IMG/VR virus record: IMGVR_UViG_3300033149_003138
Strand: one strand, 5' to 3'
Source of the DNA: an uncultured virus (IMG/VR IMGVR_UViG_3300033149_003138)
Taxonomy: Duplodnaviria; Heunggongvirae; Uroviricota; Caudoviricetes
DNA length: 64,000 nucleotides
A program made the position numbers and the translations under genes. This document shows, one piece after another, positions 3,967 through 49,903 of the stretch. The number at the start of each line of letters is the position of its first letter. Position 1 is the stretch's first letter. The notes beneath the pieces were generated by a model. That model was given only the letters and a program-made list of their open reading frames with translations. It did no database searches and was not told the origin of the DNA.

Positions 3967-4031
3967 CTGGTATCTAATACCATAAACCTTTTATATGATA
4001 CACAGTGTATCAATTTCTGAGTAAGTATGGC
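3967..4031 (+). promoter_or_regulatory. Class B promoter: GGTATCTAATACC, TTTTATA box, TGATACACAGTGTATCA, GAGTAAGT-ATG
   Basis: Near-identical ~63-bp block at 14531 and 23007, each ending in ATGGC. Confidence 0.8.
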
Positions 4032-11271: not shown

Positions 11272-11667
11272 ATGGGCAAAAAAAGAAGGTCTCCCAAACC
11301 TCATAGGGTTAGGACTAAAGACCCAAGATACAACATCAACGGATATAACAGAGGCAAATCCATTTTCTTCGAATCCAAGTACAGGAAATACTCAGAAATG
11401 ATCAGGATTGACACACTTTCTACCGCCAAGGACTCTATTAAAAGGGTTCTTGATGAGTTTGAATCCGCTAAACAGCCAACCAAAATGAGAAGGCTGATCT
11501 CTGAGGCGAACTGTGCAAGTAACAGGGCTATGATCGCATCCAAGAACCCACGAAACAGTCCAGAAGAGAGAAAAGAGAGTGCAGAAGTCGCAAAACTGTG
11601 GAGGAAGGCACAGCAAACTCTCAGCCGTAAGTACGAGACAAGAAAAAAGAAGAGAAAACGTAGATAG
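11272..11667 (+). CDS. HPRY-leader protein 1 (basic, helical cargo)
   Basis: N-terminus MGKKRRSPKPHRVRTKDPRYNINGYNRG. Confidence 0.8.
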   Translation: MGKKRRSPKPHRVRTKDPRYNINGYNRGKSIFFESKYRKYSEMIRIDTLSTAKDSIKRVLDEFESAKQPTKMRRLISEANCASNRAMIASKNPRNSPEERKESAEVAKLWRKAQQTLSRKYETRKKKRKRR

Positions 11668-16186: not shown

Positions 16187-16197
16187 GTAGGTATGGC
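16134..16197 (+). promoter_or_regulatory. Class B-like promoter
   Basis: GGTATCTAATACC...TTTAAA...GAGTAGGTATGGC. Confidence 0.6.
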
Positions 16198-17383
16198 TGA
16201 AGGAAGAAAACTTAGAGATGTGCTTCCAGACGAAGCATATATCCAACTCAAGGATAAGGTCTACCAGCACCTAGATCAAATCGTCATCAAAGAGTACAGG
16301 TCTGGTGACTTAATCAACGAACCAGATACACCCTTCAAACAGAAGTACGTCTACCACTGGTATTTGCTTGAAAACTTCTACGCAGTAGGCTTCAACGAGA
16401 ACCCTTCAACAGGATGGAGTTTCCCAGTCACCAAGTATGGAGGCAGAAACCACAACTATCTCAGGATCATCTATCACGTCAAAAAGATACTTCAAGAGTA
16501 CCCTGACGTGGATCAGTGGACTCTAAGGCAAATGTATTACCGTCTTGTAGCTAGGCACATAATCCCGAACACGATAAACGAGTATAAGAAACTCTCAAGC
16601 TACCTGACCACGGCTAGAGAAGATGGAGTCGTAGACTACAAGAAATTCGAGGACAGAGCAAGGAAGGTTCTAGGCTACGGTGACACTGGTTATGAATCCA
16701 TTGACCAATTCATAGAAAACCAGATAAAAGACTTCCTGAAAAGTTATCGTTACTTCAGTTACAAGCAATGGCTCAATCAGAAGGACTATATCGAACTATG
16801 GCTAGAAAAGGATGCCCTAAGTTCCATCTTCAAAAACGTAGGTGACGGATTCAATCTTTATACATGTCCAACAAGAGGATACCCCAGCTACAGCTATGTC
16901 ATCGAGGCAGTGGAACGATTCTCCGAAATAGACAAACCAATAACCATCCTCTATTTCGGGGACTTCGATCCAAGTGGCTTGAACATCCCTGATAACCTCA
17001 TTGAACGCATCTACAGGTACGGTGACTTTGACGAAGGCTCAATAACCCTAGAACGGATTGCCTTGAACCCTGATCAAATAAACCAGTACCAGCTTCCACC
17101 TGCTCCTGCTAAGCGAACTGATGTAAGGTTCAAAGGCTTTGTTGAGGAAACAGGTACAGATCAGGTGGTTGAACTAGACGCACTTGAGCCAACAATCTTG
17201 AGAGACATTATCAAAGAAGCCATTTCTCAATATATCGATTCTCATCTATGGAACGAGATGATCCGAAAAACCAGTCGTGTGAAGGAACGACTCAAGGACA
17301 TAATCAGCAACGCTGAGATAGACCTTGATCAGGATTTGATTGATGAATTAAAAGAAGATGAAGATGAAGCAGATGAGTATTAG
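16193..17383 (+). CDS. Topo VI-A/Spo11/JetD-like Toprim protein with an extra N-terminal domain
   Basis: TLRQMYYRL, ELWLEKDAL, GYPSYS, ILYFGDFDPSG, RIALN, VELDALEP motifs. Confidence 0.75.
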   Translation: MAEGRKLRDVLPDEAYIQLKDKVYQHLDQIVIKEYRSGDLINEPDTPFKQKYVYHWYLLENFYAVGFNENPSTGWSFPVTKYGGRNHNYLRIIYHVKKILQEYPDVDQWTLRQMYYRLVARHIIPNTINEYKKLSSYLTTAREDGVVDYKKFEDRARKVLGYGDTGYESIDQFIENQIKDFLKSYRYFSYKQWLNQKDYIELWLEKDALSSIFKNVGDGFNLYTCPTRGYPSYSYVIEAVERFSEIDKPITILYFGDFDPSGLNIPDNLIERIYRYGDFDEGSITLERIALNPDQINQYQLPPAPAKRTDVRFKGFVEETGTDQVVELDALEPTILRDIIKEAISQYIDSHLWNEMIRKTSRVKERLKDIISNAEIDLDQDLIDELKEDEDEADEY

Positions 17384-45456: not shown

Positions 45457-46380
45457 ATGAATCCGACGAATGAAGCAAAGATAATGCGCCTCTTCGAGAG
45501 GGACAACAGAGACTATACAGCCTATGAAATAGCTTATTCAGCCAAAATAAGCAAAAATAGCGTTTATTCCACACTCACTAGAATGATAAGAAAAGGGCTG
45601 GTAAGACGCGTAGAACGTGGAATATATCGTGCAAATCCCACCATAGGGGTGGGTGATATTTCTGAGCCTATGAGGATTCAGAACATCAGACTTGTCAGCC
45701 GAAAAATGGATGGGAAGTCGATTGAGCCTCCTTCTTGGCTGGATTATAAGCCTTTTGTGGGTTATGTTCATGAGTTGGAGTTGTTGGGGCTGGGGAGGAC
45801 TGAGGAGGATAAGGTTCGGCTGAGGTTTCAGATTGGTAGTAAACGAGCCAAGTTGACTTTCACGGTGAAGGCACCTCTGGGGCTGGATTTATATGGGTTT
45901 CAGTTTGCTTTGCAGTGGCTCTATGATCGTCTTGATCAGTATGGTTTCTCGGGGGATGTTCACTGGATTGTGGATCGTGGGACTGAGATGTTCAAGGATT
46001 ATCCTAATGTGGATTTGGATGCTCTGGGGTCTAAGGCGATTACTCTTGGTGAGTTTAATGGTTGGGTTGAGAAAATTTATCAGAAGGCTTACGGGATGAG
46101 GCGTGAGTTGAAGCTGGATCATCAGACTAGCCTTGACGCTATTATGGCTGTCACTATGGGTGGTTTCAGTGCTGGGCAGGTGTTGAACATGAATGCTTTG
46201 GCTATCAGGGAGATGGAGAAAAGCAACAGGGCTTTGAAGTCTTGGAGTGTTGGTGCTTCTGAGACTCAGAGGGCACTTCAGGATATGATGCCCCCTTTCA
46301 TGAATGCGATCTATAAGATTATAGATAAAATTGATGATATTTCACGTAGGATGACGCGTCTGGAGGATAAGCTGGATTGA
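45457..46380 (+). CDS. Winged-helix (TrmB-like HTH) protein with unknown C-terminal domain
   Basis: TAYEIAYSAKISKNSVYSTLTRMIRKGLVRRVERGIY; C-terminal coiled coil. Confidence 0.7.
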   Translation: MNPTNEAKIMRLFERDNRDYTAYEIAYSAKISKNSVYSTLTRMIRKGLVRRVERGIYRANPTIGVGDISEPMRIQNIRLVSRKMDGKSIEPPSWLDYKPFVGYVHELELLGLGRTEEDKVRLRFQIGSKRAKLTFTVKAPLGLDLYGFQFALQWLYDRLDQYGFSGDVHWIVDRGTEMFKDYPNVDLDALGSKAITLGEFNGWVEKIYQKAYGMRRELKLDHQTSLDAIMAVTMGGFSAGQVLNMNALAIREMEKSNRALKSWSVGASETQRALQDMMPPFMNAIYKIIDKIDDISRRMTRLEDKLD

Positions 46381-46637
46381 GTCTGGGTGACTTCACTGGT
46401 GCTGAGGATAACTCTGATAGGGAGCAACTTGATGTGACTTTTATCGGAAAGTATAAGGGCTACGGTATCTTTCTTCACCCGCTATATGGATACCAGATTA
46501 CTAGGATGGATGAGCCGAACCTGATCAACGTGGGCATACACATCCATGATATTGAAGTAGCACATATATTCATTGACGAACTGCCTGAGCCACCCAGCTT
46601 CTATGATAAACTTCTAAGCAAACCCAATAGAGACTGA
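46377..46637 (+). CDS. Hypothetical protein
   Basis: 86 aa; its 3' end is duplicated at ~47084-47148. Confidence 0.55.
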   Translation: MSLGDFTGAEDNSDREQLDVTFIGKYKGYGIFLHPLYGYQITRMDEPNLINVGIHIHDIEVAHIFIDELPEPPSFYDKLLSKPNRD

Positions 46638-46690
46638 TTCAACTTGTATCAGCTTACCAATAATTTTTTATAGTTTTGGTGCCTTCATCT
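46570..46690 (+). repeat. Imperfect ~120-bp direct repeat, left copy (gene 3' end + 17-bp palindrome + class A promoter)
   Basis: TCATTGACGAACT...TGATTCAACTTGTATCAGCTTACC...TTATAGTTTTGGTGCCTTCATCT; recurs at 47084-47200. Confidence 0.8.
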
Positions 46691-46695
46691 CTATT

Positions 46696-47079
46696 ATGGG
46701 TAGGAAGCGTAAGTCCCCAGTCAAACATACGGTTCATACGAAGCATCCTCGATATAACGTGCCTCAGTATCCTAGAGGCTCTGGATTTCCCCCTGTTTCT
46801 CAAGTTAAGCGTCGCGACACGGACTCCTTTATTCGTTATGTTAAAACACAGGTTATAGACGTATTACAGCCTTTTTACGTTGTTTTCAATAACCCGAAAG
46901 TGGGGGACATACCTGTAAACGCTGACGATTATAGTGGGGCACGCTATCTTCTAAGCTATTATGAACCTGATCAGCCTAATGCTATAAATAATGTATTTTA
47001 TGACCCATATCATAACGTGGTTGTAGAGTATAGTGATGATTGGTCTCATTCTACTGAATGGAAAGACCTCAATCTCTAA
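46696..47079 (+). CDS. HPRY-leader protein 17
   Basis: MGRKRKSPVKHTVHTKHPRYNVPQYPRG. Confidence 0.8.
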   Translation: MGRKRKSPVKHTVHTKHPRYNVPQYPRGSGFPPVSQVKRRDTDSFIRYVKTQVIDVLQPFYVVFNNPKVGDIPVNADDYSGARYLLSYYEPDQPNAINNVFYDPYHNVVVEYSDDWSHSTEWKDLNL

Positions 47080-47083
47080 ATTA

Positions 47084-47200
47084 TCATTGATGAACTTCCT
47101 GAATCTCCCAGCTTCTACGATAAGCTGTTAAATAAAAGAAGAATTTGATTCAACTTGTATCAGCTTACCGATAATCTCTTATAGTTTCGATGCCTCCACT
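47084..47200 (+). repeat. Imperfect direct repeat, right copy
   Basis: TCATTGATGAACTT...TGATTCAACTTGTATCAGCTTACCGATAATCTCTTATAGTTTCGATGCCTCCACT. Confidence 0.8.
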
Positions 47201-47287
47201 TGTTAATTCACATCGGGTTGAACTATGTTCATATTGAGTTGAACTGGGGTCGATAAAATTTTTTATATTATTAAGGAGTTATAAACT

Positions 47288-47560
47288 CTAGCCCCGTACC
47301 AAGGAGTGCTTGGGGCAGAACTCGGTTGCACTCTTCGGGTTCTAGCCACGCGGGGAAGCCGTTGACTCGGGGAGAGCAACGTTCAGGGCAGGGCGTATCG
47401 TGAGCCTCGAAAATGAGGTAATATGCGTATCCCAGCAAGCCCATCCGTAAAGAGCCCCGATGAGGCATTTTTCCTCTTGTGCGGATATGTTATTCTCTGG
47501 GGAAGCAGGTTTACCAAAACACCATATACTGTTGAGGTAGACCGACAGATACACGCCTCT
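47288..47560 (+). ncRNA. Candidate structured non-coding RNA, family unknown
   Basis: GC-rich and lacking a long + strand ORF. Six hand-found helices with G-U pairs on the + strand. TATA-like box at ~47259-47268. Confidence 0.55.
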
Positions 47561-47612
47561 TAATGATATTTTACGGCAACTGCTATAAGCGTTATAATAT
47601 AACCTACCTCTA

Positions 47613-47882
47613 ATGAGGCGTGGTGAGAGGGTTCAATGTTTTCACTGTGGCTGGATAAGGTATTTAGATCAACCTGAACCCGCAAACCCGAATACATGGG
47701 ATCATGACAAGTATTTCTTCTGTTCTAACTCACGCCATAACGAGATAAGAAGAGACATGTTCAGCGTATATTGTAAGAGACACTGTAATGACTTCAGGGA
47801 CAGAAAGAGTGAAATTCCTGTACAGGCACCCTCTGAAAGATACCCTAAAGGAACCATAATGGAAATGACTGATACGATGTGA
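47613..47882 (+). CDS. Cys-rich Zn-binding protein
   Basis: CFHC...C...C..HC; preceded by GCTATAA promoter. Confidence 0.5.
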   Translation: MRRGERVQCFHCGWIRYLDQPEPANPNTWDHDKYFFCSNSRHNEIRRDMFSVYCKRHCNDFRDRKSEIPVQAPSERYPKGTIMEMTDTM

Positions 47883-49903
47883 GTCAGATGAATCCGCTTG
47901 AGAAGAATAAGCTGATCCTTGGCGATTGCATAGAAGTCATGCAAACATGGGAACCAAACACAGTTGACTGCATCGTAACTGATCCACCCTATTTCCTGTT
48001 AAATGATAGTGGGAAAGGATTTATGGGCAAGGAATGGGACAGCGTATCTGATCAGAATTGGCAGAGCCTTAAATATCACACAGGATTTGCCCTGTTTGTG
48101 GTGAAGGCTTTGTCGTTGCTACAAGTCGGCTTAAACACGGAAGAGGAAAATACTGTTCAAGAAAATGCCAATATGAAGCAAGAAGAAAACAAAGTAAACC
48201 AAACACAAACTGCATCGTATGTGGAAAACCAATCCATCGTACTAAGCCCACAAAATATGGATCAGTCTGTTCAAGGGCTTGTCTTTACGAGGGAAAGCGT
48301 AGAGGGATTATTGGGCGTGATGTTCAAAAACCGTATAATCGAAAAGCAACCTCTAAGCCTACCAGAAAATGTCTTGTTTGTGATACCGACTACATACCTA
48401 GAAAAAAGACTCAAAAATATTGTTCCAGATCATGTTTTGAAAAAGCACATCGAAGAAATATGCGAGGGAAAAACAATCCATCTTACATCGATGGAAGAAG
48501 CAAAAATAAACGCTGTTACAGAGGCGATGATTGGGAAGAACAGCGAAAGAAATGCTACAAACGAGATCACTATACCTGTCAGGTCTGTGGAAAACATTGT
48601 GGAAGAAAAGAGATACAGGCTCATCACATCATACCCTACAAAGAGAAAGGAACTAACGACTTATCTAACCTCATTACTCTATGCAATGTATGTCACGCCC
48701 AAGTCGAGGCAGGAACTATACAAATCCCTCTGCTTTGACAGCCTATTTCCAGCCTTCATCGAGATGTATCGTGTGTTGAAGCATGGTGCTTTGGCTTTCG
48801 TTATGAGCAGTCCACGTCAGGACTTAATGTGGAGGATGTGCAAGCTATTAGAGGACACAGGATTCGTTCTCACGCAGAGCTACTTAAACTGGATATACAA
48901 AACAGGTATGCCAAAAGGCATGAATGTCAGTAAAGGTATAGATAAAAAATTAGGTTTGCTTTCTGAACGAGAGATCATTAGTTACTACACCATTCCTCCA
49001 GATTCGGATGCAGGGAACGCAGGTATGAACTATTCAGATATGCCTATCAATGGAAATGTTTACCAAGACCCTCATAGAGATACTAGACGTGCTGAACTGA
49101 CAAAACCTGCCTCTAAGGAGGCTGAACAATGGGATGGTTGGTATAGCATTGCTGGTTTGAAACCTGCTCATGAACCCATTTTGATGGTGTATAAGCCTCT
49201 ATCAGAACCTACGATTGTTGATAATGTTTTGAAGCATGGTGTTGGGGCTATTAACGTTGATGCCTGTAGAATACCCATAGTAGAGAGGGACACTACAAGC
49301 CGACCAAACATATTCGGTAAAAAATATGAGGAGGGAGATCATGTTTACGGTCAAGGTTTAGGCTATGGTGTTCCCATGCTCTCAGAAAAAGGTCGTTTTC
49401 CTGCCACTGTTCTTGTCTCTGATAGGGCAATAGACACTGGAAAACAAAGTAAAAGTGGTGCAAAACTTCCCCACCATAAGATGATTAAAAAAGCAAACGT
49501 CTACGGTAAATATAATGCAATTACAGGTTACAATTATCCTGAAGATGTTGGTGATCAGAGCAGGTATTTTGACCTTGATGCATGGGCAAAGCATCATGGG
49601 ATTCTCGATGTGCCTAAGCCTTCTCCATCTGAACGGGATCAGGGTCTTGACGGGAGGAATAAGCATCCGACGGTGAAGCCTGTTCATCTTATGGCTTATC
49701 TTGTTGCTTTGGGGTGTCCTGTGGGTGGTGTGGTGCTTGATCCTTTCATGGGAAGTGGCACTACCTGTATGGCTTGCAGGACGCTGGGGAGAAACTACGT
49801 TGGTATCGAGATTGAAGAAGATACGTATAATGATGCTGTGAAACGTGTTTCCTCTGTGGTTCCTTCTCTGTTTTTCTATGATGAGACGATGAAAGATGAG
49901 TGA
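47879..49903 (+). CDS. DNA N4-cytosine/N6-adenine methyltransferase (beta-type motif order) with a 233-codon insertion
   Basis: ILGDCIEVM, VDCIVTDPPY, RVLKHG, LKPAHEPI, HPTVKPVHLM, VVLDPFMGSGTT. Confidence 0.9.
   Translation: MSQMNPLEKNKLILGDCIEVMQTWEPNTVDCIVTDPPYFLLNDSGKGFMGKEWDSVSDQNWQSLKYHTGFALFVVKALSLLQVGLNTEEENTVQENANMKQEENKVNQTQTASYVENQSIVLSPQNMDQSVQGLVFTRESVEGLLGVMFKNRIIEKQPLSLPENVLFVIPTTYLEKRLKNIVPDHVLKKHIEEICEGKTIHLTSMEEAKINAVTEAMIGKNSERNATNEITIPVRSVENIVEEKRYRLITSYPTKRKELTTYLTSLLYAMYVTPKSRQELYKSLCFDSLFPAFIEMYRVLKHGALAFVMSSPRQDLMWRMCKLLEDTGFVLTQSYLNWIYKTGMPKGMNVSKGIDKKLGLLSEREIISYYTIPPDSDAGNAGMNYSDMPINGNVYQDPHRDTRRAELTKPASKEAEQWDGWYSIAGLKPAHEPILMVYKPLSEPTIVDNVLKHGVGAINVDACRIPIVERDTTSRPNIFGKKYEEGDHVYGQGLGYGVPMLSEKGRFPATVLVSDRAIDTGKQSKSGAKLPHHKMIKKANVYGKYNAITGYNYPEDVGDQSRYFDLDAWAKHHGILDVPKPSPSERDQGLDGRNKHPTVKPVHLMAYLVALGCPVGGVVLDPFMGSGTTCMACRTLGRNYVGIEIEEDTYNDAVKRVSSVVPSLFFYDETMKDE
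48073..48738 (+). CDS. Zn-finger-repeat HNH endonuclease nested out of frame inside the methyltransferase gene
   Basis: Frame is open 48073-48738 with three CxxC...CSRxC repeats and RDHYTCQVCG...AHHIIP...NLITLCNVCH. The first ATG is only at 48460. Confidence 0.75.
   Translation: MSHRICPVCGEGFVVATSRLKHGRGKYCSRKCQYEARRKQSKPNTNCIVCGKPIHRTKPTKYGSVCSRACLYEGKRRGIIGRDVQKPYNRKATSKPTRKCLVCDTDYIPRKKTQKYCSRSCFEKAHRRNMRGKNNPSYIDGRSKNKRCYRGDDWEEQRKKCYKRDHYTCQVCGKHCGRKEIQAHHIIPYKEKGTNDLSNLITLCNVCHAQVEAGTIQIPLL

Follow-up and report, generated by a model that had tools for sequence, protein, structure and literature searches.

A candidate structured non-coding RNA with two predicted loop–loop contacts in a likely virus of Bathyarchaeia

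The locus and its genomic setting

The locus is a stretch of about 280 nt (positions 47291 to ~47572) with a GC content of 54%, set between flanks of 29–31% GC (Table 1). It lies in the window, whose 64,000 nucleotides are bases 1–64000 of a virus record that is 93,986 bp long, complete, and carries direct terminal repeats. With a GC fraction of 0.541 it is among the four richest of all 270-nt genome windows (mean 0.432, s.d. 0.039), and the GC optimum falls at 47290–47559 (flanks 0.29 and 0.31). The stretch is single copy within the virus, and all three plus-strand frames are closed across it, leaving no plus-strand ORF. The earlier note described the surroundings as wall-to-wall coding, which is overstated: the genome has 30 gaps of more than 120 nt between ORFs of at least 70 aa.

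On viral codon usage, the two minus-strand ORFs that cross the stretch reach −0.05 and −0.03, compared with −0.03 ± 0.10 for 125 antisense shadow frames and a 5th percentile of 0.11 for long viral genes, and they fall below 63 of the 65 small plus-strand ORFs. The 70-aa ORF has 0 relatives among 1.84 billion proteins, and the exact sequence of either ORF is absent from the protein collection searched. The earlier note had named conservation of these ORFs as proteins as a refutation of the RNA gene; they look non-coding.

The host is likely to belong to the Bathyarchaeia, a class of deep-sediment archaea, because relatives of a Toprim-like protein and of an ATPase family of the virus occur there. 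Of the first 36 genome loci with a relative of the Toprim-like protein (16193–17383; PHROG 6247, ‘DNA topoisomerase’), 33 are named Bathyarchaeia or Bathyarchaeota, and its nearest cellular relatives are in that class. The ATPase family (genome 74279–76492) is present in 12 of 401 Bathyarchaeia genomes, in a search confined to that class, and has no match in the viral contig collection. The viral ATPase contains an insertion of ~340 aa that is missing from its relatives and is likely to be an intein. The structure model of an intein-free relative (pLDDT 83) is nearest to the STIV/STIV2 B204, PH1 and A32-like packaging ATPases and to HerA.

Upstream of the stretch, a basic HPRY leader is found on 17 ORFs, within window positions 11272–47079. 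This leader may resemble the basic, His-containing stretch of ribosomal protein eL42/L44e; Pfam gives no eL42/L44e-type match for it. HPRY relatives in marine-sediment metagenome fragments retain the leader together with the class A promoter. On the downstream side, the N6/N4 DNA methyltransferase ORF (window 47879–49903, 674 aa) has an in-frame insert of ~230 aa without stops, which overlaps a 92-aa HNH endonuclease ORF (48460–48738) in another frame of the same strand.

Table 1 Features of the locus and of a second structured element
Feature	Coordinates	Strand	Remarks
Degenerate duplicate of 46570–46690	47080–47205	+	One repeat match 79%; in-frame paralogous peptide
Two palindromic operator-like sites, TTCA-N8-TGAAC, 21 bp apart	47206–47245		Directly upstream of BRE
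Archaeal BRE CGATAAAA and TATA box TTTTTTATATT	47251–47269	+	Predicted +1 ~47291
Two minus-strand ORFs	47271–47468 (65 aa); 47342–47554 (70 aa)	−	Shadow frames, not genes
5′ domain	47291–47355	+	Stem 47292–97/47350–55, hairpin H1 47299–313, hairpin H2 47317–43
Hairpin H3	47360–47381	+	Loop 47367–72 (UCGGGG), predicted 5′ strand of second pseudoknot
3′ multibranch domain	47391–47558	+	Closing stem 47391–96/47553–58 encloses H4, H5 and H6
H4; long H5; H6	47404–19; 47430–502; 47508–43	+	Within 3′ multibranch domain
T-rich tail	47560–47573	+	Likely terminator, from archaeal oligo-T termination
Class C promoter and palindrome	47574–47612	+	Serves downstream 89-aa ORF 47613–47882; bounds RNA gene
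Second ORF-free structured element, ~270 nt	Genome 71854–72120 (region 71821–72160), outside window		Behind class C promoter without ATG

Promoter, operator-like sites and boundaries

The earlier note placed a TATA box and a class A promoter copy upstream of the stretch, and both are present. The combined BRE and TATA pattern has two matches in the genome, of which the other drives the HPRY gene at 46696. From the start of TTATA to the first ATG, class A promoters measure 28–37 nt in 10 of 12 copies; counted from 47263, the shortest of these spacings (28 nt) leads to 47291, where the 5′ helix begins. Another TATA-like word, at 47279–86, would put the RNA start near 47310 and yield the alternative fold B described below. 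The sigma-70 type of promoter scan is inapplicable to archaeal promoters.

The palindromes directly upstream of the BRE are putative transcription-factor sites. With patterns derived from the very sites tested, one form gives two matches in the 64 kb, both of them these sites, where 0.25 would be expected (2 of 100 shuffles), and another form gives three, all here (0.97 expected; 7 of 100 shuffles).

The class A promoter at 47168–47203, regarded in the earlier note as an orphan, sits inside a degenerate tandem duplicate whose source (46570–46690) comprises the 3′ end of ORF 46377–46637 and a class A promoter. In frame after the stop (47077–79) of the HPRY gene 46696–47079 there is a 22-aa peptide paralogous to the C terminus of ORF 46377–46637, followed by the decayed class A promoter, as in a tandem cassette duplication (46377–46690 and 46696–47205). 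The orphan promoter is probably a by-product of this duplication and need not drive the RNA. As it belongs to a decayed duplicate, little can be read from it about shared regulation with the HPRY genes; of the 12 class A copies, 7 precede HPRY genes and 3 precede genes of other kinds. A partnership between the RNA and the HPRY proteins, proposed speculatively before, has no direct support. Part of the H5 loop (47459–47468) looks by eye like the reverse complement, less one base, of the conserved element of class A promoters that adjoins the start site upstream.

Archaeal transcription terminates at oligo-T, and the T-rich tail would end the transcript immediately before the class C promoter of the next gene. 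The ATG of ORF 47613 lies at +36 of this promoter (47577), and the other class C copies have values of 32–45. The stretch thus has a boundary at either end and, with a separate promoter serving the downstream gene, is not needed as a leader. The palindrome GGTAT-N3-ATACC recurs beside class C promoters (for example in the gaps at 3971, 14534, 16137, 23011, 53304 and 54453), with a variant at 47591–47603, and is likely to be the operator of a viral repressor.

The GC island is also flanked by an inverted repeat that matches at 10 of 11 positions (47265–75 and 47559–69), as would be expected of a DNA element, either a MITE-like insertion between 11-nt inverted repeats or an origin or recombination site that forms hairpins. 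A repeat of this quality turns up in 19 of 300 shuffles of the AT-rich flanks, the stretch is single copy and none was found in 802 genome searches, and its folding is strand-specific with G–U pairs, unlike that of the element at 71854–72120. We consider a DNA element very unlikely, and reject a MITE on the chance-level repeat and the single copy.

Predicted fold of the plus-strand transcript

The coordinates and sequence words of the earlier note are correct, and much of the fold that it drew by hand recurs in the full-length ensemble. This holds for the helices AGAACUCGG/UCGGGUUCU at 47317–43 (p 0.66), CGUUG/CAACG at 47360–81 and GGUUUACC/GGUAGACC at 47508–43 (p 1.0). Elsewhere the outer or inner parts differ. 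The hairpin CCAAG/CUUGG (47299–313) stands, but GCCCC/GGGGC cannot enclose it in full, because there are only four G residues (47312–15) and two of these are shared; 47292–97 pairs preferentially with 47350–55 (p 0.61 versus 0.17). GCCUC/GAGGU (47404–19) is recovered (p 0.88), but the GCGUAU/AUAUGC helix around it appears only when sub-domains are folded separately and not in the full-length fold. Likewise AUCCGUA/UGCGGAU (47443–86) is predicted with p 0.95, but in place of the inner GAGG/CCUC the model pairs AAGAG with CUCUU. The 5′ and 3′ ends of the stretch do not pair in the predicted folds.

The plus strand folds at −99.7 kcal/mol, with z of about −2.1 to −2.2. This is better than shuffled sequence, as the earlier note had anticipated for a functional RNA, but modestly so (z −2.12, with 5 of 200 shuffles as low, and 34 of 1,712 in the larger set); the minus strand is not better (z −0.47, 62 of 200). 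The signal comes from the 5′ domain (47290–356; z −2.82, 0 of 150 shuffles) and from the final hairpin (z −2.72, 1 of 150); the parts between them have z of −1.2 to −1.5, with 47386–500 and 47425–505 alone at −1.2 to −1.3. Across 1,252 genome windows of 271 nt on both strands, the raw energy is the fourth lowest and the composition-corrected rank is 16, within the best 1–2% of windows, so that energy alone does not single out the stretch. The folding of the plus strand is strand-specific and includes G–U pairs.

Loop–loop contacts and a competing fold

Complementarity between the first two hairpin loops had been noted before as GAGTG and CACTC, and is longer than claimed: GAGUGC (47304–09) and GCACUC (47328–33) form six Watson–Crick pairs. 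A 6-bp loop–loop match occurs in 38 of 1,712 shuffles for any loop pair and in 9 of 1,712 for adjacent hairpins. We found a second, non-nested contact of six pairs that the earlier note had missed, between the H3 loop and the H5 loop (47455–60, CCCCGA), the latter forming the predicted 3′ strand of the second pseudoknot. At least two non-nested 6-bp contacts are seen in 47 of 1,567 shuffles, and in 2 of 1,567 when equally low energy is also demanded; these odds flatter the case, because the rule was set after the contacts had been seen, as is true of the pseudoknot and shared-hairpin tests generally.

The predicted nested fold (fold A) has a close competitor. In fold B, 47331–41 pairs with 47364–74 to give a long rod that buries one strand of each pseudoknot. 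With pseudoknot energy excluded, fold B is only 0.6 kcal/mol above fold A; its probability is 0.31 at 37 °C, and at 15 °C it is the dominant fold. The two extra pseudoknot helices would tip the balance towards fold A. Whether the kissing fold is functional we judge to be close to an even question, leaning slightly towards no.

Two near-isoenergetic 5′ folds would also suit an RNA that regulates the downstream operon (the 89-aa Cys/His ORF and the DNA methyltransferase) through base pairing or through a switch between folds A and B, and the 3′ end (47552–59) is complementary to 8 nt at the start of ORF 47613. A complement of at least 8 nt at that start is present in 22 of 300 shuffles, however, the next gene is served by a separate promoter and would lack a leader, and the stretch matches no riboswitch family. 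Regulation of this kind is, in our estimate, improbable.

In the minimum-energy structure H1 and an extended H2 meet at the junction without a linker. If they stack end to end in this way, an intramolecular kiss would be barred unless the 3-bp GGC/GCC stem opens, and the loops could then pair only between molecules.

Searches for homologues and earlier descriptions

Homologues were sought in several collections. Blastn against phages gave one chance match only, and against plasmids none. The 401 genomes of the Bathyarchaeia class contain no homologue (chance matches of 20–34 nt in 4 of the 401), and the 401 phylum genomes have 0 matches to the stretch. A single-sequence covariance model found 0 in 43 genomes and records and 0 in 150 class genomes; run over 44 sources it recovered only the stretch itself, the best E value in the rest of the virus being 0.17. 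Pattern scans of the viral contigs for the kiss returned 94 loci, all chance, and for the second pseudoknot 17 loci, the best scoring 7.5 bits over 34 positions. The HPRY motif was not found in the genomes scanned, and no member of the virus family was found in the viral contig collection. A metagenome scan for the HPRY family gave 15 loci, of which five are short family fragments (1.3–4.8 kb), and none of these five short fragments holds a copy of the RNA.

These negatives are weak, because no close relative's DNA was among the sequences searched. Proteins of relatives are known on contigs of 92.7, 68.8, 67.0 and 58.8 kb; as the close relatives are known as proteins alone, the empty searches are no sign that the RNA lacks conservation. 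With no homologue found, there is no covariation to draw on.

Searches of the open-licence literature turned up no description of this RNA, or of any structured non-coding RNA of a Bathyarchaeia virus. Duan et al. describe four Bathyarchaeia virus families, and ‘ncRNA’ and ‘non-coding’ occur 0 times in the available portion of their text (PMC10541130).

The same searches bear on the possibility that the stretch has not been selected as an RNA at all, being a decayed or captured piece of GC-rich DNA, or else an unstructured transcript, with folding at the high end of what chance produces. The modest z (about −2.2) and rank, the two near-equal 5′ folds, the lack of a homologue in any search and the recent duplication next door are what this would predict. 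It must also let several features coincide, however: the BRE/TATA distance, a unique operator pair, a sharp rise in GC where +1 is predicted and two pairs of complementary loops. No source sequence is present in the 401 class and 401 phylum genomes. We regard this explanation as unlikely, and a real viral non-coding RNA gene at 47291 to ~47572 as probable. For the functional RNA proposed earlier, the promoter placement, the GC island, the missing coding signal and the strand-specific folding are all in favour, though short of proof.

Comparison with known RNA classes

The stretch matches no Rfam family at gathering score, in agreement with its earlier description as novel, and at E ≤ 10 it collects only sub-threshold miRNA, snoRNA and sRNA scores. 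No model of the riboswitches and self-cleaving ribozymes of Rfam 15 matches. By eye, some words of the stretch may look like those of TPP, group I, twister, pistol and hammerhead RNAs; for each of these the order or the core is missing and Rfam gives no support. ARAGORN predicts 0 tRNA or tmRNA genes in the window and in the whole genome, which removes both identities. A box C/D or H/ACA guide RNA is rejected on the longest host rRNA complement, which at 8–9 nt falls below the 10 nt required here of a guide and is at shuffle level in a target set of one 16S and two partial 23S rRNAs of Bathyarchaeia rather than of the true host; no canonical K-turn is visible by eye in the stretch. The phi29 pRNA model (RF00044) has no match on the whole virus, in a run whose control set lacked a true pRNA.

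Archaeal RNase P RNA (RF00373) is similar in length and likewise combines a multibranch fold with loop-derived pseudoknots, and we presume a likeness between a few short words of the stretch and its conserved regions. The stretch differs in lacking a P1 helix that closes both ends and in showing no similarity to host copies. RF00373 finds no match at E ≤ 10 on the whole virus, although controls matched, and no other Rfam type of RNase P RNA matches the stretch. The archaeal SRP RNA model (RF01857) has 0 matches at E ≤ 10 on the whole virus, with 12 of 14 controls matched; 4 of 5 Bathyarchaeia genomes match this model. Alignment to three RNase P and four SRP RNAs of Bathyarchaeia is at shuffle level (best 17 of 300).

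The 5′ domain nonetheless resembles the SRP Alu domain in topology. As described in the accessible part of the structural report, the Alu core has a loop–loop pseudoknot of five Watson–Crick pairs, is tRNA-like and sits at the ribosomal factor site, and the UGU linker between its two hairpins is conserved, as in the B. subtilis structure (PMC4231752). The stretch has the same closing stem and two hairpins, with loops able to form 5–6 consecutive Watson–Crick pairs, but lacks the UGU linker that this source describes; its linker is 0–3 nt (GGC). Its 6-bp loop complement is a predicted Alu-core-like feature, with which fold B competes. Like archaeal SRP RNA it is a stand-alone RNA of ~300 nt behind a TATA box. 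It differs in having no end-pairing helix 1, long helix 5 or S domain with helix 8, in being virus-encoded, in its second long-range loop contact and in the absence of any model or alignment similarity.

Its length of ~280 nt, stable-RNA-like promoter and Alu-like 5′ topology, along with the presumed RNase P words, might suggest that the virus captured an RNA of a known class (SRP RNA, RNase P RNA or a ribozyme), which then diverged too far for the models to recognize. Against this, no Rfam model matches at E ≤ 10, nor do RF00373 or RF01857 on the virus although their controls did, the alignments to Bathyarchaeia RNase P and SRP RNAs are at shuffle level and the ends do not pair. We see little chance that this is the explanation.

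Adenovirus VA RNAs are viral decoy RNAs that come as a pair, and GOLLD and ROOL are large, ornate phage RNAs. The stretch would share with all of these the character of a structured, ORF-free viral transcript with its own promoter, and with the VA RNAs the presence of two candidate RNAs in one virus (see below). It differs in having no sequence or model match to them, in its archaeal host and in being far shorter than GOLLD and ROOL.

A second structured element in the same genome

Outside the window, the element at genome 71854–72120 gives the top composition-corrected residual of the genome fold scan, with z −6.1 on both strands (0 of 200 shuffles each). It has no Rfam match, and the 12 genomes that have the ATPase contain no copy. 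Sequence homology between this element and the stretch is rejected, their alignment being at shuffle level. The pattern CTC-N0-2-GGGG-N0-2-GAG nevertheless has its only genome matches in these two elements, and an AGCCCCG loop is present in both (a word with 12 genome copies); both features were seen first and counted afterwards. In the second element, the AGCCCC loop at 71973 could pair with a GGGGUU loop near 72073.

The element folds on both strands, whereas the stretch at 47291 to ~47572 does so on the plus strand only. Four GTGATCTA inverted repeats lie 3′ of it, near the convergence of plus- and minus-strand transcription, and an integrase-like gene (labelled by eye) is close by. It may be a non-coding RNA or an origin, as its symmetry and the nearby inverted repeats also fit a DNA origin.

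Discussion

The case for an RNA gene is stronger now than in the earlier note, through the promoter geometry, the operators, the second pseudoknot and the sister element, although the statistics are modest and the function is inferred. Known from a single sequence, it is at present a good lead and not a discovery.

What the RNA would do is best approached through its lack of pairing partners. Within the virus genome, complementary 11-mers are at chance level (21, compared with 11.9 ± 5.7), and neither the viral start regions nor the Bathyarchaeia rRNAs compared (one 16S and two partial 23S) contain an antisense target beyond chance. Given this, and a fold that seems suited to tertiary compaction, a protein-binding role is the likeliest. 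We picture the host polymerase transcribing from +1 at ~47291 to the T-rich tail, under the control of the two upstream operators. The transcript of ~280 nt would fold compactly, locked by the two loop–loop pseudoknots with fold A winning over fold B, and would bind a host factor in trans as a decoy or scaffold. We put this role forward tentatively, and doubt it more than we credit it. The most speculative step is the partner, for which our first guess would be the translation apparatus, because the topology of the 5′ domain is that of the SRP Alu core, a tRNA-like structure that the available text of PMC4231752 places at the ribosomal factor site.

The chief rival to a decoy or scaffold acting in trans is self-association in the manner of phi29 pRNA, with intermolecular kissing that would form a ring at the packaging ATPase or a scaffold gathering basic HPRY-tagged proteins. 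According to the accessible portion of PMC4201828, pRNA has a three-way junction with two complementary loops, and the stretch shares with it a virus-encoded, ORF-free RNA, a predicted junction and loop pair of this kind, and a genome with a packaging-type ATPase. The zero-linker junction would favour pairing between molecules, the model of the ATPase relative is nearest to B204, PH1, A32-like ATPases and HerA, and the RNA gene stands at the end of the last HPRY cluster, preceded by a copy of the class A promoter. The stretch is, however, longer than pRNA, and its gene is not beside packaging genes but 27 kb from the ATPase, whose fold is nearest to B204/A32/HerA. There is no Phage_pRNA match, and no portal, connector or HK97-type capsid is detected by PHROGs (17 proteins) or Pfam (115), most of the proteins being without a family. 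We know of no A32-type motor that needs RNA, which also counts against self-association. Duplication accounts for the class A copy, and the five short HPRY metagenome fragments are without an RNA copy. Self-association therefore seems improbable to us.

Taking both structured elements together, one could imagine a family of Bathyarchaeia viruses with an A32/B204-type ATPase in which a pair of RNAs shares a GGGG-loop/AGCCCC-loop kissing module and assembles, together or as rings, into a ribonucleoprotein scaffold for HPRY cargo or into a tRNA- or Alu-like ribosome mimic. We hold this to be a long shot; such a class was not found in our archaeal-virus searches.

If the stretch is transcribed and folded as predicted, it would be a compact two-pseudoknot RNA outside all 4,227 Rfam families, small enough for probing and cryo-EM. 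Were it so, archaeal viruses, like phi29 or adenovirus, would use RNA for packaging or host subversion.
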